Shown here piece by piece: positions 3,789 through 53,948 of a DNA stretch of 64,000 bases. The stretch is taken from assembly GCA_965205025.1 (NCBI GenBank), contig CBDBFU010000012.1, positions 32,001 to 96,000 on the forward strand. Reading direction: 5' to 3'. Below the pieces are notes generated by a model. It searched no databases, was not told the origin of the DNA, and saw nothing but the letters and a program-made list of their open reading frames with translations. Source of the DNA: Candidatus Poribacteria bacterium (lineage in GTDB: Bacteria; Poribacteria; WGA-4E; WGA-3G). The translations under genes were made by a program, and so were the position numbers. Positions within the stretch are counted from its first letter, which is position 1, and every line of letters begins with the position of its first letter.

Positions 3789-3917
3789 ATGAGGATTAAG
3801 TTTTAAATTCGGTAATTCCCATTTTCCCAAACTCGGTAGGCGGGGAATGCCATAAGGCATTCATACCGTTGATTTGGCGGTTTCCTAACCGAACCGAATT
3901 ATTATTTTAATCTTCAT
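3789..3917. mobile_element. MITE family C containing an E micro-element (3841-3874), inserted in a CACAAACTTT|TAGTTTGTG hairpin
   Basis: TIR ATGAGGATTAA/TTAATCTTCAT; close match to 37234-37346. Confidence 0.8.
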
Positions 3918-4385
3918 TTAGTTTGTGATCTTACTCCTACCCTCTCCAAACACTCTTATCCGCGTAATCTGTGTAATCTGTGATTCAGAGAACTCAAACA
4001 TACATAAAAATAAACTAATATCATTAAATTAACACTTATTAACACCAAAGGTGACAAAATTATTTACACACCCAAACGTAAGGGTGTGTAAAGTTTATGG
4101 CATTAATTTACGGAATAGAAGCGGATCAAATACTTTTTTTAGTATAAACTATATCAAAATCTAATTTTACACTTTTCCATAAGTCTTTAAATTAATTGAA
4201 GAAAACACAAATACCTAACAACTAACACACATATATCACAATAATATAAAATAAATTAAATATAATTGTCAAAATATAAACAAAATGTTATAATACTATA
4301 TCGTTCACTAATTGTAAACTAAAGATAACACATTACTTGGAAGATACGAAATATTGTTTATACCGTGAAGTGTAACTATTTTCTA

Positions 4386-4507
4386 CAGGACTTACGCATT
4401 TCATCTTAAAGTCCCCCTGATAAGGGGGATTTAGGGGGTTAAAACAATGAAATGACGGCTTTTTAAGTCAAATTTTACCTATTTCTACTTAAGTTGCGTA
4501 AGTCCTG
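4386..4507. mobile_element. MITE family F (TIR CAGGACTTACGCA) with 5-bp target duplication
   Basis: Perfect 13-bp TIR; TTCTA on both sides; internal CCCCCTGATAAGGGGG hairpin. Confidence 0.85.
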
Positions 4508-35288: not shown

Positions 35289-37025
35289 CTATCCTTTTTG
35301 CATTTTTGCCCAACTATCACGAAGAGGAACTGTCCGATTGAAAACCAGTTTATCCGGTGTTGAGTCCGAATCTACACAAAAATAACCGGTCCGTAGAAAC
35401 TGATATCGACTTTCTGTTTCAGCATCTAATAAACTTGGTTCAACCTTGCAATTTTCCAAGATTTCTAAAGAGTTTGGATTAAGAAATTGTATCCAATCGG
35501 TTCCCTCAACAGCATTCTCTGGTTCACGTTCAGTAAAGAGGGTATCGTATAATCGAACTTCAGCATCAATGGCTTGTTCCGCTGAAACCCAGTGTAAGGT
35601 TCCTTGTACACGACGTCCATCATCTGACCAACCACCCCTTGTATCTGGATCATAAGTACAATGTATTTCTACAATTTCTCCAGTTTGATCATCCTTAATG
35701 ACATTCTCACAAGTTATGTAGTAGGCGTGTTTTAGACGAACTTCTCTCCCTGGGGCTAACCGATAGAATTTTCGTGGCGGATCCTCCATGAAATCATCTC
35801 TTTCAATATATATTTCTCTTGAAAATGGGATTTCTCTTCTACCAGCACTTTCATCTTCAGGATTATTCTCAGCATCAAGCATTTCAACTTCGTCTTCTGG
35901 ATAGTTATCAATAATAACTTTAACAGGATTAAGAACTGCCATTACCCGTGGCGCGCGTATGTTTAAGTCATTTCGTATTGAATACTCAAGTTGTCCTAAC
36001 TCAATCAGATTATCAGCTTTTGATACACCTATACGATTACAGAAATCTCTAATAGCTTCAGGTGTATACCCCCTACGACGCATCCCCGCAAGAGTAGGGA
36101 GTCTTGGATCATCCCAACCGATAACATGTCCTTCTTCAACAAGAATTTTCAGCTTTCGTTTTCCAAGTACAGTATAAGTAAGATTTAAACGAGCGAATTC
36201 AATTTGTCTGGGTTGATAAATCTCTAATGATTCTAAAAACCAATCGTATAAGGGACGATGATCCTCAAATTGAACATCACAAAGTGAATGTGTAACACCT
36301 TCTATTGAATCTGATTGTCCATGCGTGAAGTCGTAGGTAGGATATATACACCAATTGTCCCCATGTCGGTAATGATGTGATCGAAGGACACGATACATGA
36401 CAGGATCGCGCATATTTAGATTGGGACTTGACATATCTATTTTCGCTCGAAGTGTGCGTGAACCATCAGGAAATTCACCATTACGCATCCCTTGAAAAAG
36501 CCTAAGATTTTCCTCTGTACTTCGGTTTCGATAAGGACTTTCCTTACCAGGGGTCACTAATGTACCACGATACGTTCTCATCTCCTCAGATGTAAGATCG
36601 CAAACAAAGGCTTTACCTTTTTCTATCAATTTCGTCGCATATTCATAGAGCGTCTCAAAATAATCGGAGGCATAAAACTCCCGTTCTTTCCAATCGAATC
36701 CGAGCCAATAGACATCTCTCTTAATCGCCTCTACATATTCGCTCTCTTCTGTAATTGGATTGCTATCATCAAATCTTAAATTATAGAGACCCTTATAGTC
36801 TTCTGCAATTCCGAAACTAATACAGATGGCTTTTGCATGTCCTATATGTAGGTATCCACTGGGTTCAGGGGGGAATCGTGTATGAACCCTACCCTCAAAT
36901 CTATTATTTGTAATATCTTCATCAATGGCTTGTCGGATAAAATTAGTTTGGGAAGAATTATTGGAATTTTCTTGGTTGGTATCTTGCCTTTTTGAACTTT
37001 TCAAATTAGAATTAGACGACTTCAT
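35289..37025 (-). CDS. glnS: Glutamine--tRNA ligase
   Basis: [30 protein letters not shown]; AGGAGG RBS. Confidence 0.96.
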
Positions 37026-37048
37026 GCACACCTCCTCAATCAAAATAT

Positions 37049-37077
37049 ATTATACTTTTAAAATGTAATAATGTCAA
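37049..37077 (-). promoter_or_regulatory. Consensus sigma70 promoter of glnS-gltX
   Basis: Minus strand TTGACA-17bp-TATAAT. Confidence 0.8.
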
Positions 37078-37094
37078 AAATATCAAGAAGCAGG

Positions 37095-37430
37095 GGGTGT
37101 GTAAAGTTTTTGTCACCATAGGTATTAATTTATTCAGTAGTCTCTTCTGTAGAAGGGAACTCCGATTCCCGACTCTTCTCTTCCTCTTCGTAGGGGCGGG
37201 GTCTACCCGCCAGATATTTGTATCGCAATCTTCATGAGGATTAAGTTTTAAATTCGGTAATTCCCATTTTCCCAAACTCGGTAGGTTCGGTTTCCTAACC
37301 GAACCGAATTTCTAACACATTACCGAATTATTATTTTAATCTTCATCCAGATTGCGTCTTGCGGTATAGCACAAACTAACAGATTATGCTACAAAATAGA
37401 CACATATAGTGACAAATTATTTACATACCC
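37095..37430. mobile_element. MITE family G containing REP hairpins and a nested C element (37234-37346)
   Basis: TIR GGGTGTGTAAA..TGTCAC / GTGACA..TTTACATACCC; 9-bp flanks AGAAGCAGG/AGAAGCATG. Confidence 0.7.
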
Positions 37431-37431
37431 A

Positions 37432-38103
37432 GAAGCATGTAGAGTCCATTATCTAACTGTTGATAGAGATTATGATATTCATCTCATGGACTACTATCTT
37501 GAATTTGTTGATGGGATTATAGATGTAAATTTGTATGTAACTATAGGCGTCAATTTAAGAGAAAAAACATTGTATCCCTGACCGGTAGGTGCGGTTTCCC
37601 AACCGCACTATAGGCGTCAATTCAAGAGAAAAAACATCGTATCCCTGACCGGTAGGTGCGGTTTCCCGGGGAATGCCTAATGGCATTCATACCGTTGATT
37701 CACCGCACCGAATTTGTGCCAAACCTTTGATTGAAAGCCTTCGTGTATAATCCGCTTCGGTTAGGAAACCGAAGCTACCGTTCCTGGATATGTACTAAAC
37801 TAAATTGACGCCTATGGTGTAAATTTATATGTAACTTTCTATTCTACCTATACGTTAAATCGATATGATGAGGAAACCTTAATATTGGGAGTGTATAGTA
37901 TGTATACCGACGCTGAAGCAAAAACCGTTGATACAGAATTAAAGCAGGAAAAGAATTTAGATTACTATGAATTTGCGTTGTATTTTGCAGCTATAAAAGC
38001 TAAGGACGAGGAATTCCGGTGGGAACAATTCATTGATAACCTTTCATATATATGTGATCAATTTGCAACTCATATTGAAGTCAATAAACGTGTCAATCAA
38101 TGA
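37432..38103 (+). pseudogene. Hypothetical gene remnant interrupted by MITE D
   Basis: Removing the element and one duplication gives an open frame EACRVHYL...DVNLYVT-FYSTY...GVYSMYTDAE. Confidence 0.55.
37543..37815. mobile_element. MITE family D (TIR ATAGGCGTCAATTTA) with 21-bp target duplication, internal duplication and E micro-element
   Basis: Flanks 37522-37542 and 37816-37836 match at 19/21. Confidence 0.85.
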
Positions 38104-38140
38104 TTAAAAAAATATAATATAATTACGGAATTTTTGATGT

Positions 38141-38179
38141 AAATAGAAAGGGTAGGTTAATAACCTACCCTTTCTATTT
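38141..38179. terminator. Bidirectional rho-independent terminator
   Basis: AAATAGAAAGGGTAGGTTA-A-TAACCTACCCTTTCTATTT between convergent genes. Confidence 0.8.
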
Positions 38180-38193
38180 TATAATCCACTTTA

Positions 38194-39438
38194 TTATAAT
38201 ATTTCACTCAATTTTGGATGATTTTTAAAGATATTAACGAGATTATTGGCTAACTTTTCAGGATCATGTCGGATAACATTCATCTGTCCACCACCTAACC
38301 ATGTTCCATATTCTGTTACTACCATATCTCGAATTAAATCTGCTTCAACAACTGTAATCCCATCCTCTTCAAGTCTTTCAACTTCTCTGTTATATGAAAC
38401 TTGGACTTTCGATGCGTCGGCAACCTGCATAGTTTCAGCAGAAAGACCGGATATATCTTTGGCTAAGTTTAACACTTCTACTAAATGCTCAGTATCTTCA
38501 GCAAGCATTGATAAACCTTCATCGGATAAAGATTTAATCCTTGTTAACTGAGATACCAATTCCTTCCGTACATATTCCTGCATAATTTCTTTAGGTGCAG
38601 GTTGATTATTAACCAATACATAATCAATTGGAATCTTGGCATGGTCAAGTATAGCATCCACATGATCAGTTACTGCATATCCATCGGTTTCACCAGGTTG
38701 TGTCATTACATTACAGACATATATCTTCAATGCCGGGGAACGTTGTATTGTTTCAACGATACCTTTTATAACCAAATTTGGCATAATACTTGTATAAAGA
38801 CTACCTGGACCAATGATAATTGCATCCGCGTTAACAAGTGCATCAATTGCAGTTTCGTGTGCTTGACACTCATACACCTCTTCCGAAGTGTGATGGATTT
38901 TTCCATTTTCTCGTGGTTCAAAAAATACACGTTTAATTGGTTCTCGATTTTCTCGTATAGGTATTGTTGATTCACCTTTAACAATATCTCCATCTGCAAG
39001 TTCAGCACACAAAACTGTATAATCCAAAGTAACAGGTATAATTTGCCCTCGAACCGATAGAAGTCGTGAAGCAGCTTGTATTGCCTTTGGAAAATTACCC
39101 CTAAATTTTTCTGTTAATGCAGTTAACAACAGATTACCAATGGTATGTCCACCAAGGTCCCCATTACTGGAAAATCGGTATTCAAAGAGACCCGCGAGTT
39201 CATCTGCATCAGAAAGCGTACACAATAATCTACGAATATCTCCAGGAGGTAGGACATCAAACTCCTCAACAAGTCGTCCCGAACTTCCCCCATCGTCAGA
39301 TACAGTAACTATTGCAGACAGGCTATCTAAATCAATGATGTTACCACTATCTGTTTCGAGGTCCGCGAAGTATTTTATCCCGCTGAGTAACGCGGAGAGT
39401 CCACTTCCTCCACCGATACAGGTAATTTTCAATGACAT
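38194..39438 (-). CDS. YvcK/GlmR (UPF0052) family UDP-GlcNAc-binding protein
   Basis: IGGGSG, DDGGSSG, PPGDIR, GPGSLYTS, NVMTQPGET. Confidence 0.9.
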   Translation of the reverse strand: MSLKITCIGGGSGLSALLSGIKYFADLETDSGNIIDLDSLSAIVTVSDDGGSSGRLVEEFDVLPPGDIRRLLCTLSDADELAGLFEYRFSSNGDLGGHTIGNLLLTALTEKFRGNFPKAIQAASRLLSVRGQIIPVTLDYTVLCAELADGDIVKGESTIPIRENREPIKRVFFEPRENGKIHHTSEEVYECQAHETAIDALVNADAIIIGPGSLYTSIMPNLVIKGIVETIQRSPALKIYVCNVMTQPGETDGYAVTDHVDAILDHAKIPIDYVLVNNQPAPKEIMQEYVRKELVSQLTRIKSLSDEGLSMLAEDTEHLVEVLNLAKDISGLSAETMQVADASKVQVSYNREVERLEEDGITVVEADLIRDMVVTEYGTWLGGGQMNVIRHDPEKLANNLVNIFKNHPKLSEIL

Positions 39439-39511
39439 AATTACTCCAAACTATACCAAATTGGTTCTTAGTTATTATTGTTACATGTATTGTTATATTT
39501 TTACTATAGTT

Positions 39512-39734
39512 ACGACTTGTGCTAAATGACTATTTGTAATACGCTATTTTACAATAATTGAATTTTGTTAATATATTCTGTTATTGTTTGTAACACTCTT
39601 GAGTCCCGTAGGGACGGAATGTCTATAGAAAAACTATTACACCCATCTCTTGAGTCCCGTAGGGACGGAATGTTTATAGTATAAAATTTATTCGTGAAAA
39701 CAAAATGGATAAATAGTTAACTGGCACAAGTCAT
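39512..39734. mobile_element. MITE family H (TIR ACGACTTGTGC..ACTATTT) with 7-bp target duplication, carrying a REP-A doublet (39601-39679)
   Basis: TATAGTT at 39505-39511 and 39735-39741. Confidence 0.8.
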
Positions 39735-39827
39735 TATAGTTTGTCCTGTTTAACACTCAGTCATGTTATATTTTAAGGACGATGTATTTTGAATGGTATC
39801 CATTATCTATTGTGACAAATTACGGAG

Positions 39828-41228
39828 TTAAAGGTTTATCTGTTTCATTAACGTGCTAAGACATTCAAGTGTTTCGTCACATAAGGTTTCTGCTTCTTCA
39901 GTAGTTGGGGCTTCGCTGAAAACTCGAATAACAGGTTCTGTACCAGACTTTCGAATGTTAACCCACCTGTCATCCCATACACGTTTGATGCCATCTGTCA
40001 AATCCAGCCTTAGAGAGGAATTTTGGGAAGAGCTCGTTTCGTCCTTATATTTTTTCATTGCCATATTAACAAGTTGTGTAGCAGCCTCTTGTGATGGGAT
40101 CTCAAACTTTTTTCTGCACATCTCGTATTTCGGTATATTATCAATAAGACCTGAGATACTTTGTTTTGAATCTACAAGATACTGAAGAATTGCTGCAATT
40201 GATGTTATCCCATCAGTTGTATAATTTATGGATGGATAAATAACTCCACCAGTGCCTTCCCCTCCAAGTACAGCATCTACCTCATTCATTTTTTCAACTA
40301 CCCAACCTACACCAACTTTGGTTCTATGTAAGACCACACCATGCTTTTCAGCAATGTCGTCCAACATTCTACTTGTAGATACAGTAGCTACAATATCACC
40401 TGTCGTTCTACTTAATATAAAATCTGAAACAAAAGTATAGGTCCATTCCCCACTCAATGGAATACCCTTATCTGTTACAATTACGAGTCTATCTGCATCA
40501 CCGTCATGAGCAAATCCAATATCTGCATTTGAATCACGTACAATCTTGCATAGTTCAGATATGGCTTCAGGTGTAGGTTCCGCAGGTCGTTTGAAATTAC
40601 CATCTGGAACACAGTTTAATTCTTCCACATCACAACCGAGTTCTTGCAGCAGTAGTGGACTAATTACACTCCCCGCGCCGTTACCACAATCTAATACCAC
40701 TTTGAAATTCCTTCCTCGAATTGAATCAACATCGATCCATTTCGTATTAAGAATTTGCTTTAAATGAATAAAGTTTGCATCCTTGTTTTCTTCGTATGTC
40801 CCAAGTTGGTTCCAGGCAGATAAGTTATATGACTCTGTCTCATAAATATGGAGAAGTCTTTCTCGTTCTGCTTGATTTAACAATCTTCCAGATTCTGAAG
40901 CAAATTCAATACCATTCCATTCTACCGGATTATGACTTGCTGTGATAGTAATACTTCCCTGAGCATCAAGTACTTTCGACATTAATAGTATCGTTGGTGT
41001 GGAGCATAAACCAACATCAATAACATGACATCCCGTAGCTAAGAGACCAGTTAATACAGCATGCCGTAGCAATGGACTTGAAGTTCGAGAATCACGTCCA
41101 ATTACGACAGTCTTACCTTCAACAAATGTACCAAAAGCTAAACTGAATTTGGTAATAGTTTGTGGGTCAAGTGATTCAGCTACTTTTCCACGAACTCCTG
41201 AGACACTGATGATTGGTTCTGAAGACAT
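39828..41228 (-). CDS. glmM: Phosphoglucosamine mutase / phosphomannomutase
   Basis: TASHNP, DGDADR, GEGTGG, RKSGTEP. Confidence 0.8.
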   Translation of the reverse strand: MSSEPIISVSGVRGKVAESLDPQTITKFSLAFGTFVEGKTVVIGRDSRTSSPLLRHAVLTGLLATGCHVIDVGLCSTPTILLMSKVLDAQGSITITASHNPVEWNGIEFASESGRLLNQAERERLLHIYETESYNLSAWNQLGTYEENKDANFIHLKQILNTKWIDVDSIRGRNFKVVLDCGNGAGSVISPLLLQELGCDVEELNCVPDGNFKRPAEPTPEAISELCKIVRDSNADIGFAHDGDADRLVIVTDKGIPLSGEWTYTFVSDFILSRTTGDIVATVSTSRMLDDIAEKHGVVLHRTKVGVGWVVEKMNEVDAVLGGEGTGGVIYPSINYTTDGITSIAAILQYLVDSKQSISGLIDNIPKYEMCRKKFEIPSQEAATQLVNMAMKKYKDETSSSQNSSLRLDLTDGIKRVWDDRWVNIRKSGTEPVIRVFSEAPTTEEAETLCDETLECLSTLMKQINL

Positions 41229-41269
41229 AAATTTTCTATTCTCTATATGGTTATTAGTTGAACTGAGAC

Positions 41270-41436
41270 ATTAGCGTCAATTTAAGAAAAAAATGTTATA
41301 TCCCTGACCGGTAGGTGCGGTTTCCCAACCGCACCGAATTTGTGCCAAACCTTTGATTGAAAGCCTTCGTGTATAATCCGCTTCGGTTAGGAAACCGAAG
41401 CTACCGTTCCTGGATATGCGCTAAATTGACGCCTAT
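41270..41436. mobile_element. MITE family D with 21-bp target duplication
   Basis: GGTTATTAGTTGAACTGAGA(C/T) at 41249-41269 and 41437-41457; internal inverted REP pair. Confidence 0.85.
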
Positions 41437-41471
41437 GGTTATTAGTTGAACTGAGATAATTTGTTATTCTT

Positions 41472-41619
41472 ATACCATTTCTATTTAAATAGTTCACATT
41501 ACGATCACTCTTAGTAGTCCCCTGATAAGGGGCGGGGAATGCCCTAAGGCGTTCATACCGTTGATTCTTTAGGGGGTTTCTTCAAATAGTAATGAACAAT
41601 GTTCATTTAAAAATGGTAC
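41472..41619. mobile_element. B-type shell with F-type hairpin and E micro-element (41533-41567)
   Basis: ATACCATTTCT...AAAAATGGTAC. Confidence 0.65.
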
Positions 41620-42382
41620 TACATATACGCCATGTCCATAGGAAGCAGCCACATCCTATAACTATAAACCAAAAACTGATTATATACCAAGACGGGTATG
41701 AAAAATCATAAGATGTGATCGGTGTCAATTCATAAAGCAGCGGAGTTCGGAATATATCTATCCCATCATAAATATGGCATATTGCTATTATTGGATTCAG
41801 ATGCAGTATTGGTTGTATGAACTGTTGTATACTGTGGATATATCTATCTAATGGCATCAATAAGAAAGGACTTCCTATCAAGACACTTAAAATTAGATAA
41901 GTGCATTCTGTGCCAAATATGTCATCACGAAGTATTCGCGCACTCCACATTCCCAATGCACCCATAACAAGACAATATACACCTAATACAATCATCATTA
42001 ATAATAATTTACCAGGTGGACTATTTGAATAGAAAAGTGAGAATGCTGTTGATAAAAAAATCCAAATTAAGATAGGTATCTGGTTAACATATAATTTCTC
42101 TAACAGTAGATTTCTAACTCTGAGATTATTTTGAAAGAATGAATCTGAAGATAAAACTGAAATGAATTGTGATCGTATGGATATTGCACCCAAATATGGA
42201 GCGACAATCAGGACAACAAATGTCTGTGCAATAGCATAGCATTCTGCTTTTGAACCCAATTTGGCTAATATTAATAATTCAAAGATGATCCATTGTAAGA
42301 AACACGCAATTCCAATACATATCAATACTTGCTTAATTATGTCTTGTTTCTTATAGGAAAAATAACCCATTGTTGAATCCAC
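41603..42382 (-). CDS. Hypothetical multi-pass membrane protein (ABC-2 permease-like)
   Basis: About 6 hydrophobic segments, LNP motif. Confidence 0.6.
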   Translation of the reverse strand: MDSTMGYFSYKKQDIIKQVLICIGIACFLQWIIFELLILAKLGSKAECYAIAQTFVVLIVAPYLGAISIRSQFISVLSSDSFFQNNLRVRNLLLEKLYVNQIPILIWIFLSTAFSLFYSNSPPGKLLLMMIVLGVYCLVMGALGMWSARILRDDIFGTECTYLILSVLIGSPFLLMPLDRYIHSIQQFIQPILHLNPIIAICHIYDGIDIFRTPLLYELTPITSYDFSYPSWYIISFWFIVIGCGCFLWTWRICSTIFK

Positions 42383-42389
42383 GAATTCT

Positions 42390-43049
42390 CTATTCTTCTA
42401 TTACACGACGTAATCGCAGTAAGGATTCTGCAATAGAGATAAGATTAGGATTGATTTCTAAGGCTTTTCTATAGGCATCTACTGCTTCATCAACTTTTCC
42501 TAACCTTAGATATATATGACCCATACCTGCATACGCACCAAAATGATGTGGATTTAACTCTATTGTTTGTATGCAATCCGTTAGAGAATTGTCCCAATCC
42601 TCTAACATAAAATATGCTATTGCTCGTTGATTGTAACCTTCAGCAAAACTTGGATCCAACTGAATTACCTCTGAAAAACACTCAACTGCGTCTATGAACT
42701 TTTCATTCTTTAAAGATCTTTTACCCGTATTTAGCAATCTATCTACGCTCTCTTGTCCAGATCGTGCCCAGATAGTCCATAATGCCATTTCGGTGTTAAA
42801 ACTGGCACGTATATCTTCATTTTTGAGATTCTTTACTAAAGCAGGAACTGATTCCATACTTCCAATTAGTCCTAAGGCTGTGGCAGCAGCTCTGGCAACC
42901 AGTGGGTCGTCGTCTGGAAGATAGTTTACTAAGTCGTTTTCAGAATACTTAGAGTTTAGTAGGTTTTTTAAACTTACCTGATCAGATTCATTAAACATCT
43001 GTGCTGCTAATTCTGAAAAACCATTACGTTCTGCCATAGATATCCTCAT
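42390..43049 (-). CDS. HEAT + TPR repeat protein
   Basis: AATALGLIG HEAT repeat; TPR units ending LDPSF, LNPHH, INPNL. Confidence 0.85.
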   Translation of the reverse strand: MRISMAERNGFSELAAQMFNESDQVSLKNLLNSKYSENDLVNYLPDDDPLVARAAATALGLIGSMESVPALVKNLKNEDIRASFNTEMALWTIWARSGQESVDRLLNTGKRSLKNEKFIDAVECFSEVIQLDPSFAEGYNQRAIAYFMLEDWDNSLTDCIQTIELNPHHFGAYAGMGHIYLRLGKVDEAVDAYRKALEINPNLISIAESLLRLRRVIEE

Positions 43050-43138
43050 GTTTCCTATTTCCTATATTTAATAGTTGATTATAGCATATTTTTTTTGGAA
43101 ATTACACTATATATCTCAAGACCAGTTTCAGGTATGTA

Positions 43139-43654
43139 ATACCATTTCTGATAAATAAAGTAACTCTACTGTAGCATAAACTTCCAGTTTGTGCAGTATT
43201 TCAAGACATGCTGAACAACCGTTCATGAGATGAACATTTTAGAATTGGTCTAAGATCTTCATCATTTGTGATATTCTAATTGGTGATCTTTACTAAATTC
43301 AGTCCCGTGGAATGACTTATGAGGATTAAGTAAAGATTTCGGTTATCCAGTCCAAAAAATTATCGTAGGGGCGGGGTTAACCCGCCCGTATATTACCGAT
43401 TTAAAAAATTAATCTTCATATAGCATTCATACCCGACGAATGCCATACGCGCATTCGGCGTTGATTTGGGGGAATGCTAAATAGCATTCATACCGTTGAT
43501 TCCTTGATTCCTTCATTCCTTCATTCCTTGATTTTATGTTTCTTTAGAGGGTTAAAACAACGAAATAACGGCTTTTTAAGTCCAAAAATTGAGAAAATCA
43601 CACAACATCTCGGTGCTATTGGTCACATACAGACATAATTAAATCTATCTGATA
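43139..43654. repeat. Cluster of nested small elements: B (43139-43251), C (43319-43419), three E copies, F-type fragment
   Basis: Each piece matches copies elsewhere in the window. Confidence 0.75.
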
Positions 43655-43685
43655 TTTATCAAACTTCATCAGATGTCAATGTTTA

Positions 43686-44840
43686 TCAGTGTTTACTTTG
43701 TATTTGTTCTTGAAAATGCTTACTGAGATCAGACAGTATATGTCTTTGTCCTGAAAGTTCAAGTTGTATTTGATGGAATGTTTTTCGAACGGATCGACTC
43801 ACATCTTGCAGAAGGAGATAACTTAGCACCTTGACACCTATATCCGCATACGCACCTTTTCTACCTCTTGAGCTCATTTTTGATAAATGTAGATCTGTTT
43901 TTAGGTATCGCCAAAACTGTTCTATACTGTGGTGTTGAGACCAAATCCTCAGTATCTCACAGGAGCGTAGCGGCTTTCCAAATACTAACATTGTTCGCAT
44001 TTTACCCCTATCTAAAAAGAATAGTACCACCAGTGAACCCAATGTTGGACTTGTAGCTTGTGTGCGATAGTGTGGTTTATGACACCCCCATTGATCCGTG
44101 TTTAGTTGTATCTGTTTTTTATGAGCAGAAAGTTTAGTCGTCGTGTTATCTATAGTCATCACATAGTTGTTTTTTCCGTGAACAAGTATGCGATCAAATC
44201 CTAAGTCAGACAGACTTTGGACAAGTTCTTTACTGCCATACCACGAATCGAAAGTGATCGGATATTTTCTCAGTTCAATGCCTTGGGTCTCAAAGAAATC
44301 CAAAACATCTCTGAGCATCGTATCAAAAAGACTCGGTTTGTCTGTGTTGCCTCTCCCTTGTTTGCTGACAATGCGGATATTGAGGGGGATGATCATACTC
44401 CCAATCTTGATTGTGATAGCTAACACATTACGACCTCGGATCGTGTTATTCTGTTTTTTTGACCACCAGGGGTAGCAATAGGACAGCAGTTTACCATACC
44501 TTGGATCATTCGTATCATCTACACTGATTGTGATACAGCGACGAGATTGGGTAGAAGCACTTTTGGATTCTGACTCCCGTATCTCTTGGATGGCAATAGA
44601 GCCTCCGATACGCAGTAAGAGAGACTGCCATTGATATAGACTGAAGTCTTTTAGATGACGATAAAGGTTCGCTTTCGATATTGACAACGCTTCTGCTACT
44701 TGATTCGAGTTGTAAAGACCAAACAGATGACCCGTTGAAAGGAGTAGCAGTGTTTCTAAAAGTTGTGTCGTTATTGTCCGAAAGTTGGTGAAGAGAAGTA
44801 TTTGAAAATACATAGTAGATTTGATAAGATGTTGACGCAT
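43686..44840 (-). mobile_element. IS701/IS4-like DDE transposase
   Basis: VDDT, FDSWYG, IEQFWR triad; element ends not resolved. Confidence 0.8.
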
Positions 44841-45081
44841 GGGATAAACTCCTAAGTTGTAATAGTTTAAACACATTATTTAGGATGATATCCCATGCCC
44901 TAAAAGTCAAGAATAAAATAAAAAACGCATTTTCAGGACGCTATATAGCCTCAGTACTGATTGTTAATAGGTTAAGAACAATTCTGAGAATTGTCAGCAT
45001 TAGTATTTCAATCCATGTATAACATCTGTTCATGGTATAAACATTTATAAAAATGCTATAACATCTTTTAGGAGTTGCTAC

Positions 45082-52997: not shown

Positions 52998-53948
52998 ATG
53001 GCAAATCAACCATTACCAACAATTCCAAGAAGAAGGTTAGGTAGAACTGAATTAAGCATACCAGTTGTTCCTTATGGAACTCAAGGATTCGGCAACAATT
53101 TTGGACCCGTAAGTGATGAAGAAGCAATTGACTTGATAAAACATTCGGTATCTATTGGTGTTAATCACTTCGATTGTGCTCGATGTTATGGCGATTCATT
53201 ACGAAAACTTGGATTAGCAATGAAAGAGATACCCCGTGAAGATGTTATCATTACTGCGCGTTTATGTTGTCATTCAGCTGCGGAATGGGGAGGATACGGA
53301 CAGGGAAAACCTGATTATTCTGCGGATCGAACAATCGCTGATCTGGAAAATCAACTTGAAATCCTTAATGTTGACTATCTTGATGGTATGTTAATCCATG
53401 ACCCCATCGAAATCGATCCTACACTTGAAAAAGGTGGCACACTTGAAGGTTTATTAAAATGTAAAGAGCGCGGACTCGTTAATTTCGTTGGTTATGGAAT
53501 GCGACAACACGATTACCATTTAAAAACTATAGCAACAGGGGATGTTGACCTACTCTTATGTTTTAATGACTATAATCTTGTAAGACAAACCGTCACTGAC
53601 ACAATCCTACCTGCTGCAGCCGAAGCAGATGTAGGTGTTATGAATGGTTGGTCAATTTTACGCGGGATCCTTACAGGTGTTGATATCGATGCAGAAATCG
53701 AACGCGGTCGCTGGAAAAAAGAAGGAGATGTCGCTGAAGCTTACCCAATTTGGCAGTGGTGTGTTGAGGAAGGAATAAGTCTATTACAACTTGCATTACA
53801 ATTCTGTCTCAAGGAAGGACGCATACATGGCAACAATATCGGAAGTTTAAATAAAGAACAATTAGAACAGAATGTTTGGGCTGCAAGTACTCCTTTACCA
53901 GATGAAGTATGGGAAAAATATGAAGAAAAGTTCGGTTCAATGAATTAG
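52998..53948 (+). CDS. Aldo/keto reductase (plus strand; the ORF track label is wrong)
   Basis: ATGGCAAATCAACC reads on + after GGAGG; RRLGRT, FDCARCYG. Confidence 0.85.
   Translation: MANQPLPTIPRRRLGRTELSIPVVPYGTQGFGNNFGPVSDEEAIDLIKHSVSIGVNHFDCARCYGDSLRKLGLAMKEIPREDVIITARLCCHSAAEWGGYGQGKPDYSADRTIADLENQLEILNVDYLDGMLIHDPIEIDPTLEKGGTLEGLLKCKERGLVNFVGYGMRQHDYHLKTIATGDVDLLLCFNDYNLVRQTVTDTILPAAAEADVGVMNGWSILRGILTGVDIDAEIERGRWKKEGDVAEAYPIWQWCVEEGISLLQLALQFCLKEGRIHGNNIGSLNKEQLEQNVWAASTPLPDEVWEKYEEKFGSMN

Follow-up and report, generated by a model that had tools for sequence, protein, structure and literature searches.

A hairpin-bearing unit of about 35 nt inserted within other repeats, and within itself, in Candidatus Poribacteria

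Copies of the element in the window

We analysed a stretch of 64,000 nucleotides (nt) from a Candidatus Poribacteria bacterium (assembly GCA_965205025.1, contig CBDBFU010000012.1, positions 32,001 to 96,000 of the forward strand), hereafter the window, whose genes include GlnRS and TonB-type genes. Several repeats in this window contain a hairpin-bearing unit of about 35 nt (34–36 nt), here called the element. A sequence-only reading of the window had proposed four copies, starting at 3841, 37667, 41533 and 43468, as well as a variant at 43434 and a C-interrupted copy near 43307. The four copies and the variant are all present, and the analysis described below makes it probable that the unit is a real, high-copy, independent, non-autonomous and hairpin-dependent mini-insertion element of two Poribacteria genera. 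The consensus can be written as C-GGGGAATGC-loop-GCATTC-ATACC-GTTGATT. It comprises, in this order, a 5' C, GGG, a 7-bp hairpin (GAATGCC/GGCATTC and co-varying subtypes) with a loop of 4–5 nt, ATACC and a GTTGATT tail, after which the last one to three bases vary (C, CC or TGG). The copies and their settings are given below; REP denotes a repetitive extragenic palindrome, IS an insertion sequence and MITE a miniature inverted-repeat transposable element, and host bases in brackets between hyphens are those replaced by the unit.

3841–3874, + strand: element copy 1, CGGGGAATGCC-ATAA-GGCATTC-ATACC-GTTGATT, then TGG; directly after the GGTAGG of a REP-type hairpin, itself within an IS630-type MITE (about 3789–3918)
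37667–37700, + strand: element copy 2, loop TAAT, then C; in the loop of a REP-type hairpin, GGTGCGGTT-TCCC-AACCGCACC, with one host A replaced
41533–41566, + strand: element copy 3, loop CTAA, one G–T wobble in the stem, then C; in the repeat CCCCTGATAAGGGG-(GA)-TTTAGGGGG
43306–43319, + strand: left half of a split copy (CGTGGAATGAC + TTA); gap to the right half 109 in the genome-wide half-pair scan (entry C12 75305)
43320–43419, + strand: IS630-type MITE of about 100 bp, ends TGAGGATTAAG ... TTAATCTTCA, inside the loop of the split copy
43420–43433, + strand: right half of the split copy, read from the sequence as AT + AGCATTC + ATACC
43434–43467, + strand: variant (sister-family) unit, CGACGAATGCC-ATAC-GCGCATTCGG-CGTTGATTT, with a layout that matches the main unit
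43468–43501, + strand: element copy 4, stem GAATGCT/AGCATTC, loop AAAT; head-to-tail behind the variant unit
43502–43533, + strand: tail array of four 8-nt units, CCTTGATT CCTTCATT CCTTCATT CCTTGATT, behind copy 4

A search for the 18-mer GCATTCATACCGTTGATT with up to three mismatches returned four matches in the window, all on the + strand (3857, 37683, 41549 with one mismatch, and 43484), where 0.12 would be expected by chance and none of 100 shuffles reached four. The first base is C in copies 1–3 and G in the copy at 43468–43501. Element sequence also lies near 43307; it is not C-interrupted, however, but represents the left half of a unit split by the MITE of about 100 bp in its loop. The variant unit is nested after the ATACC of this split copy and folds as DNA with –9.0 kcal/mol (z –3.09). 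Uninterrupted versions of the hosts had been noted at about 37277, 41310 and 4410. They correspond to empty paralogues of the hosts of copy 1 (37229–37350), copy 2 (41305–41325) and copy 3 (4405–4435). It also held true that the unit has no terminal inverted repeat (TIR) beyond its hairpin and causes no target duplication, with one or two host bases replaced instead of the zero to two given at first.

Copy number and distribution

The assembly to which the window belongs comprises 5.66 Mb in 33 contigs. Allowing up to two mismatches, the 18-mer occurred 283 times in this genome, compared with 0 matches for a reversed control, and the 15-mer TTCATACCGTTGATT occurred 250 times versus 0 for its reverse; 40 copies are one identical 35-mer. 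When the placement of 275 copies was examined, 262 proved intergenic, nine lay at contig edges and four within crude open reading frames, so that 271/275 were outside such frames. A scan of one genome per prokaryote species with the full unit yielded at least 80 loci. Among the matches listed, 76 were assigned to Candidatus or uncultured Poribacteria and four to metagenome-assembled genomes (MAGs) labelled 'uncultured bacterium', and the list included several complete chromosomes as well as independent MAGs.

We then recorded the distribution of a 17-nt tail motif (up to one mismatch; controls 0–1) over 176 Poribacteria genomes. It was found in 105 of them, comprising 39/39 genomes of the window's own genus (g1) and 61/65 of a sister genus (g13), while only four single matches, three of them with a mismatch, came from outside these two genera. 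The element is thus essentially specific to two genera of Candidatus Poribacteria. Counts per carrying genome ranged from 2 to 549 and differed between congeneric species as well, and the 5' C was retained in 86/91 copies from other species. More than 100 carrying genomes, the 283 copies against 0 for the control, and the occurrence in independent MAGs and complete chromosomes exclude an adapter or assembly artefact. A literature search on Poribacteria returned no report of REP-like or small mobile repeats; judging from titles and abstracts, the Poribacteria papers that mention 'palindromic' appear to concern CRISPR. A full-text search for the element motif in the available papers on bacteria gave unrelated papers only.

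Hairpin fold and stem constraint

Folded as single-stranded DNA, the four window copies gave energies of –5.1 to –7.3 kcal/mol, with z-scores of –2.1 to –3.2 for four of the five strands folded; the copy at 41533, which contains the G–T pair, reached a z of only –0.9. For a survey of the stem, copies were anchored on the tail alone, leaving the stem free to vary. Among 341 tail matches, 281 showed at least five of seven pairs and 205 all seven, the remainder being half copies or chance tail-like sites. Within the 281 paired copies, pair 4 was T–A in 228 and C–G in 22; pair 6 was C–G in 202, A–T in 25 and T–A in 14; and pair 7 was C–G in 149 and T–A in 88. The proposed covariation of the inner stem was thereby borne out, with C–G versus T–A at the innermost pair both in the window and genome-wide. 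When partners were shuffled over 55 distinct sequences, 6 of 1000 trials reached the observed pairing at pair 4, 2 at pair 6 and none at pair 7. As relatedness inflates tests of this kind, we take the result as support for, not proof of, a stem that is kept through compensatory changes.

Insertion sites and junctions

Empty sites, defined as the same host flanks without the unit, were searched genome-wide for nine host contexts. All nine occurred in both filled and empty form, with 5 to 65 empty paralogues each. The host repeat CCCCTGATAAGGGG, for instance, was found empty 48 times (44 with GA) and filled eight times. REP loops of the form GGT(G/T)CGGTTTCC-(TA or CA)-ACCG gave 10 to 57 empties, the host AAGCCC-(CA)-GCGGGGC 8 to 16, GAGTCC-(C)-GTAGGGAC 5 to 21 and CCGGTAGG-(T)-GCGGTTTCC 9 to 65. 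The unit, including its 5' C, takes the place of a dinucleotide NA (TA, CA or GA) or of a single T, G or C, and no duplication was seen in any context. Its two ends, CGGGG and GTTGATT, do not form an inverted pair, and the element thus shows neither the TIRs nor the target-site duplication of a MITE. It enters hosts as a block, landing at the tip or edge of host hairpins or directly beside a host GTAG.

The two boundaries differ in character. The 5' boundary is sharp, while the 3' boundary is fuzzy, in that C, CC or TG(G) may come after GTTGATT. On the left side the flanking sequence is variable (cctaacca, ttcatacc, cggtttcc, aagccc, gagtcc, ataagggg, ggtagg) and either CC-rich, mostly YCCC, or GG-rich; the GGG with which the hairpin begins at its foot is the complement of the Cs in YCCC. 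The earlier proposal that a polar single-hairpin unit of about 35 nt has been inserted into other repeats is well in agreement with these filled and empty paralogues, with the nesting of the unit in itself and with the presence of its subtypes in many hosts.

Self-insertion and tail arrays

Hairpin units of 27 nt, ending in ATACC, were found in direct succession, up to five in number, ahead of one GTTGATT. Counts of hairpin units and 8-nt tail units, in this order, were (1,1) in 162 cases, (2,2) in 23, (2,1) in two, (3,3) in one and (5,4) in one, with a Spearman correlation of 0.54. A further 42 single hairpins carried two to five tail units: (1,2) 28, (1,3) 8, (1,4) 3 and (1,5) 3. Self-insertion takes place at one fixed point, between ATACC and GTTGATT, and generates arrays of the type hairpin-hairpin-tail-tail. 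Dimers often combine different subtypes and hence are not slippage products. Arrays of CCTTGATT-type units follow an element tail in 17 of their 19 occurrences in the genome.

Altogether, 51/281 well-formed copies are nested inside other copies of the element. Individual subtypes also recur in unrelated hosts: CTAAATAG in at least five host classes, CCATAAGG in seven and CCTAAATGG in four. Subtypes shared among four to seven unrelated host classes, together with the nested copies, require many separate insertions. The unit behaves as a very small mobile element would, as had been surmised, in that it inserts, nests and occupies multiple host contexts, and it is among the smallest mobile-looking DNA units known.

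IS630-family guests in the hairpin loop

A genome-wide search for separated element halves revealed about 17 pairs spaced by 109–135 bp, which are split by MITEs, and six pairs spaced by 1249–1252 bp. Within the long insert lies a gene for an IS630/Tc1-type transposase of 395 aa, which combines a DDE_3 and a helix-turn-helix domain. Eight full-length copies of this IS630-family IS exist (one at C12:158830-160062, locus L159), at least 99.76% identical to each other; seven of them lie in the loop of an element hairpin, in either orientation, and the eighth lies in another hairpin tip. MITE derivatives of about 100–135 bp split the approximately 17 further copies. Long elements ending in the motif, which the sequence-only reading had suggested looking for as a route to the enzyme, thus do exist, but they are IS630-family guests inside the hairpin loop and were rejected as the parent of the unit. 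That seven of eight near-identical IS copies occupy the loop shows the tip of the hairpin to be exposed in vivo and to draw in a transposase that is active; element loops are the preferred landing site of this currently active IS.

Three other features of the window were recorded. The densest element cluster adjoins a gene for a 396-aa DDE_Tnp_1 transposase (43686–44876, – strand), which is unrelated to the IS630-type transposase (BLASTP E 0.73). At 39408–39691 the summed contig depth in four public runs was 530 to 74,509, versus 4–36 in neighbouring bins, which indicates another highly repeated element between two genes. Away from the element copies, 38146–38205 (– strand) matched the Rfam family cyano_het_sRNA with 32.7 bits (E 0.0019), below its gathering score of 35.7; this is probably a chance similarity of a hairpin repeat.

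Orientation

Neighbouring copies in the own genome tend to share a strand: 69/76 do so at distances below 500 bp (seven are opposite), 51/70 at 5–20 kb and 21/30 at 20–50 kb, compared with 48% of all copy pairs more than 100 kb apart. In tandem intergenic regions, the unit was co-oriented with the genes in 75/112 cases (p = 4e-4), and, of the genes up to 30 kb away, 58% run in the direction of the element. Skew at third codon positions (GC3), corrected for gene orientation and taken within 30 kb, left a negative residual for 58/70 + clusters versus 19/54 – clusters (Fisher p 8e-8; the clusters are not independent), and this residual fluctuates at a scale of 40 kb. Over all contigs of the own genome, the coding-strand GC3 skew was about 0 in genes co-oriented with nearby copies and 0.026–0.045 in genes on the opposite strand, an asymmetry between strands that follows the orientation of the element.

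On the complete chromosome G006 (72 copies), 27 orientation runs were counted where 27.8 are expected, and the best split into halves gave p = 0.17. A run of + copies over 2.6 Mb in G001/G018 was considered as a sign of replichore polarity and rejected, as – copies are present there. The orientation bias appears to be transcription-linked or local, and the copies in G006 show no significant replication polarity.

Y1 transposases as candidate enzymes

According to the sequence-only reading, the element resembles substrates of HUH enzymes, that is, the IS200/IS605 transposase TnpA or a REP-associated tyrosine transposase (RAYT), and its TTGAT corresponds to the target of ISDra2. In this scheme the unit, single-stranded at the replication fork, would be cut and joined by a Y1 HUH enzyme for which TTGAT serves as target or cleavage motif. 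We regard this explanation as unlikely, although of all alternatives considered here it survives best. A polar single hairpin with conserved single-stranded flanks, the absence of TIRs and duplications, and a YCCC flank complementary to the hairpin foot all fit such a substrate. Furthermore, the reverse strand of the element reads CGGTATG + 7-bp stem + 4-nt loop + CCCG and so shares its layout with the local REP, CGGTAGG + stem + loop + CCG, which flanks a bona fide RAYT in genome G018. Both local REP families have also received the element next to their GTAG: in the REP that flanks the own RAYT-like genes it sits immediately 5' of GTAG, in the other immediately 3' of GGTAGG. Y1 genes are widespread among Poribacteria as well, being present in 149/176 genomes.

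The Y1 loci themselves argue against this explanation. The own genome contains three near-identical Y1 genes (C27:72619-73089, 86984-87454 and 53023-53493; loci L001-L003), the products of which match NCBIfam IS200 with 84 bits and REP_Tyr with 32.7 bits, below the cut-off of 80. A tandem array of gtcccGTAGggacggaatgtctatag precedes these genes and inverted copies of the gtcccGTAGggacggaatgtctatag unit follow them, a REPtron-like layout. Read base by base, the three loci proved to be flanked by gtcccGTAGggac...tatag arrays and not by the element, of which they hold ordinary inserted copies only, in addition to a decayed half copy 55–100 nt upstream of each gene. This element-like upstream module was considered and rejected, being a decayed inserted half copy that is absent from the RAYT flanks of relatives (9/30 loci extracted). 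When the 30 best Pfam Y1 loci were scanned for the motif, the element did not occur as a flanking pair, and two loci contained one stray match each to its head. The RAYT of G018 (L160, G018:C1:313800-317400; NF047646, 122.8 bits) is flanked by inverted GGTAGGTTCGGTTTGTAACCGAACC; the loops of this REP family host many element copies. The element itself did not flank NF047646 RAYT genes in G018 (read base by base) or in G103 (motif scan, zero matches). Thus, at no Y1 locus examined, most of them by motif scan only, is the element a flanking end.

Neither RAYT class is linked with the element. A RAYT-like protein occurs in 71/112 family genomes and is absent from the most element-rich ones, G103 (549 copies), G018 (454), G101 (256), G003 (215) and G105 (205). 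The NF047646 RAYT occurs in 84/112 family genomes, among them G156, which has no element, and members of genera that lack it; it is missing from G015 (258 copies), G105 (205), G011 (142), G002 (131) and G094 (131). Neither PF01797 (at 1e-5) nor NF047646 (at E ≤ 1) detected a Y1 gene in G105 (one contig, 205 copies), G002 (131) or G011 (142). The anatomy of the element differs, too. On the forward strand, ATACC is unchanged in 255 occurrences of ATACCGTTGATT; the reverse-strand tag is GTAT, not GTAG; there is one hairpin instead of two ends; one or two host bases are replaced; and inverted doublets are rare (7/76). No replichore polarity was seen in G006. ISDra2 has its TTGAT target on the 5' side of its left end. 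In the element, TTGAT is part of its own 3' tail and the left flanks are YCCC or GG-rich, so that the proposed ISDra2-like target is not supported. The HUH assignment itself is not supported either, for the three reasons set out above: flanking position, abundance and junctions.

A Y1 HUH transposase of the RAYT type nevertheless is the best single named candidate for the catalyst, because the reverse strand, GGTAT + hairpin + CCCG, has the build of the local GTAG REPs. Its chances are modest; another enzyme or a polymerase template switch, taken together, is more likely.

Possible modes of spread

Our preferred reading remains that the unit is, with fair probability, an independent mini-insertion element that would be mobilised in trans. 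In the mechanism that we envisage, a folded single strand of the unit would be copied and pasted into the single-stranded tip of another extruded hairpin, and the copying may occur during replication or transcription. The catalyst would act in trans, recognising the hairpin and its flanks, and its gene would lie elsewhere than next to the unit. Host repeats in which the unit is already present would contribute to its copy number by being amplified secondarily. The spacers concerned turn over quickly: in the closest species, with flanking genes of 87–89% identity, the 725-bp repeat block that contains copy 2 is replaced by 214 bp.

Several results weigh against this reading. No enzyme that moves the element was found among the Y1 and RAYT loci and in both RAYT classes examined, and the fuzzy 3' junction is predicted by no known transposase chemistry. 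In context A (behind CCTAACCA), 49/61 copies belong to subtype CTAAATAG, and about 14/17 copies in the CCCCTGATAAGGGG context share one subtype; this strong linkage between host class and subtype, along with the 40 identical 35-mers, suggests that much of the copy number stems from amplification of host repeats already carrying the unit. When 93 loci of relatives (L004-L098, minus L086 and L087) were aligned with the own genome, none of 18 interspecies gaps of 20–80 nt was an element-only indel. At locus L067 a whole MITE including its unit is absent from the own genome. Sixteen public runs contain part of the stretch, with no RNA run listed among them; the four examined consisted of unitig-like contigs that end at repeats, none spanning a copy, and metagenomes scanned with an anchor of 27 nt taken from the adjacent pgm gene yielded 0 matches. 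As no orthologous pair of filled and empty sites was obtained, recent movement is not demonstrated. In G006, the sole chromosome with a full copy list, no significant replichore polarity was seen, which may count against an involvement of single-stranded DNA at replication.

A bolder form of the preferred reading can be put forward tentatively. The unit might be a self-propagating DNA of about 35 nt without any element-encoded or element-linked transposase, whose strand invades hairpin tips and its own joint between ATACC and GTTGATT by means of host replication or repair enzymes or an undescribed nuclease. If this were true, the element would provide, together with the small dispersed repeats (SDRs) of cyanobacteria, evidence that ultra-small mobile DNA exists as a second and widespread class. 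In the 'nesting-doll' ecosystem of Poribacteria repeats, the element would then represent the base layer and steer the landing of an active IS630 element.

Spread may alternatively proceed with no dedicated enzyme, by polymerase template switching or short-patch gene conversion: replication would stall at the tip of a hairpin repeat and copy a nearby unit before it returns. We rate this possibility slightly below that of an HUH substrate. Insertion points at hairpin tips and edges are in agreement with it, as are the fuzzy 3' junction with one or two replaced bases and the slippage-like expansion of 8-nt tail units behind single hairpins. It would further be consistent with the orientation that neighbours share beyond single spacers (at 5–20 kb and 20–50 kb), with the absence of a link to any transposase tested and with the tight association of subtype and host family. 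However, template switching leaves unexplained why the sequence is nearly unchanged across more than 100 species and why the stem shows compensatory changes. Nor does it account for the fact that unrelated hosts without homology receive the unit at a defined 5' boundary (C in 86/91), and no consistent microhomology was seen at the right junction.

An RNA-mediated route appears improbable. In this scheme, reportedly proposed for SDRs, a folded transcript of the unit would serve as template for reverse transcription, and the product would be patched into DNA. An orientation tied to transcription (the 75/112 tandem regions and the 58% of neighbouring genes), one defined and one variable end with reiterated 8-mers, and a stem that tolerates G–T pairs, equivalent to G–U in RNA, would all suit this route. 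On the other hand, the orientation bias could equally result from selection after insertion, and no Rfam family matches at the copies: a scan of 36900–44000 gave four sub-threshold matches, none at an element copy. Least probable of all is that the unit arose a few times and multiplied only as a passenger of carrier MITEs and REPs, since the one-subtype host contexts and identical 35-mers that suggest this are outweighed by subtypes shared among four to seven unrelated host classes, by the 51/281 copies inside other copies and by empties that outnumber filled sites for every major host.

The movement of the smallest bacterial repeats, such as SDRs and REPs without a transposase, has been an open question since at least 2008. 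The mini-insertion element described here is a well-defined test case, given its sharp boundaries, its fixed self-insertion point and the filled and empty paralogues of many targets. As more than 100 genomes carry it at 2–549 copies, some of them complete chromosomes that are rich in copies but lack an HUH gene, the catalyst should be findable by gene-presence association, and the chemistry can be tested with short oligonucleotides. Such units also shape the genome, in that they fill intergenic DNA and are biased in orientation relative to genes.

Comparison with known systems

Elements of the IS200/IS605 family (ISDra2, IS608) have two different hairpin ends and insert seamlessly 3' of a fixed target of 4–5 nt in a TnpA-dependent manner. 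The Poribacteria element resembles them in its hairpin-bearing, strand-polar end and in lacking TIRs and duplications. It differs in having one hairpin, a TTGAT inside its 3' tail, varying left flanks and a loss of one or two host bases.

A closer likeness is found in SDRs. Elhai et al. are said to have described SDR1–8 of Nostocaceae cyanobacteria in 2008 and to have proposed an RNA-mediated spread; these elements measure 21–27 nt. By their description, SDRs too are tiny dispersed intergenic units that are inserted precisely in other repeats and in themselves. They are reported to form predicted hairpins with compensatory changes, with no TIR, no duplication and no known enzyme, and, like the element, to be confined to a coherent group of genomes. 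What sets the element apart, again by description, is its occurrence in Poribacteria instead of Nostocaceae and its length of 34–36 nt with a fixed single-stranded tail. Targets differ as well: in the portions of the sources available, SDR5 targets the HIP1 octamer (PMC5861425, PMC4390886), whereas the element targets hairpin tips or the edges of GTAG.

With REPs and their REPIN doublets, which go together with RAYT transposases (PMC2817692; PMC3116915; PMC3733652), the element shares the format of extragenic hairpins of 20–40 nt in hundreds of copies. As in the own GTAG REPs, a tag of the GTA type immediately precedes the stem on its reverse strand, and the foot is CCG. The tag is GTAT, however, and so falls outside the degenerate forms GYAG, GYRG, GTRG, GTMG and GTGG given in the accessible part of that work (PMC3733652). 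In contrast to REPs and REPINs, the element occurs as singlets and direct arrays, with few inverted doublets; unlike in REP–RAYT systems, none of the RAYT genes examined is flanked by it and its abundance is unrelated to the presence of RAYT. A further parallel is offered by the CGTC-tagged REPs. In the part available, the same source describes these hairpin repeats as ending in a short unpaired tail and notes that they 'apparently lack a dedicated transposase' (PMC3733652). The element likewise is a hairpin repeat with a short unpaired tail, but tag, tail (CCA there) and taxa are different, and the passages available do not describe nesting in hairpin tips (PMC3733652).

SDRs and REPs are hence already known as kinds, and so are REPs inserted within small palindromes, as reported in the same passages for GTAG-23 of Thermomicrobium roseum (PMC3733652). 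New here are the exact anatomy and junction rule of the element, its fixed self-insertion point, its distribution over 176 genomes and the negative result for both RAYT classes. By analogy, the element is most likely a behavioural counterpart of the cyanobacterial SDRs and a structural cousin of the REPs.

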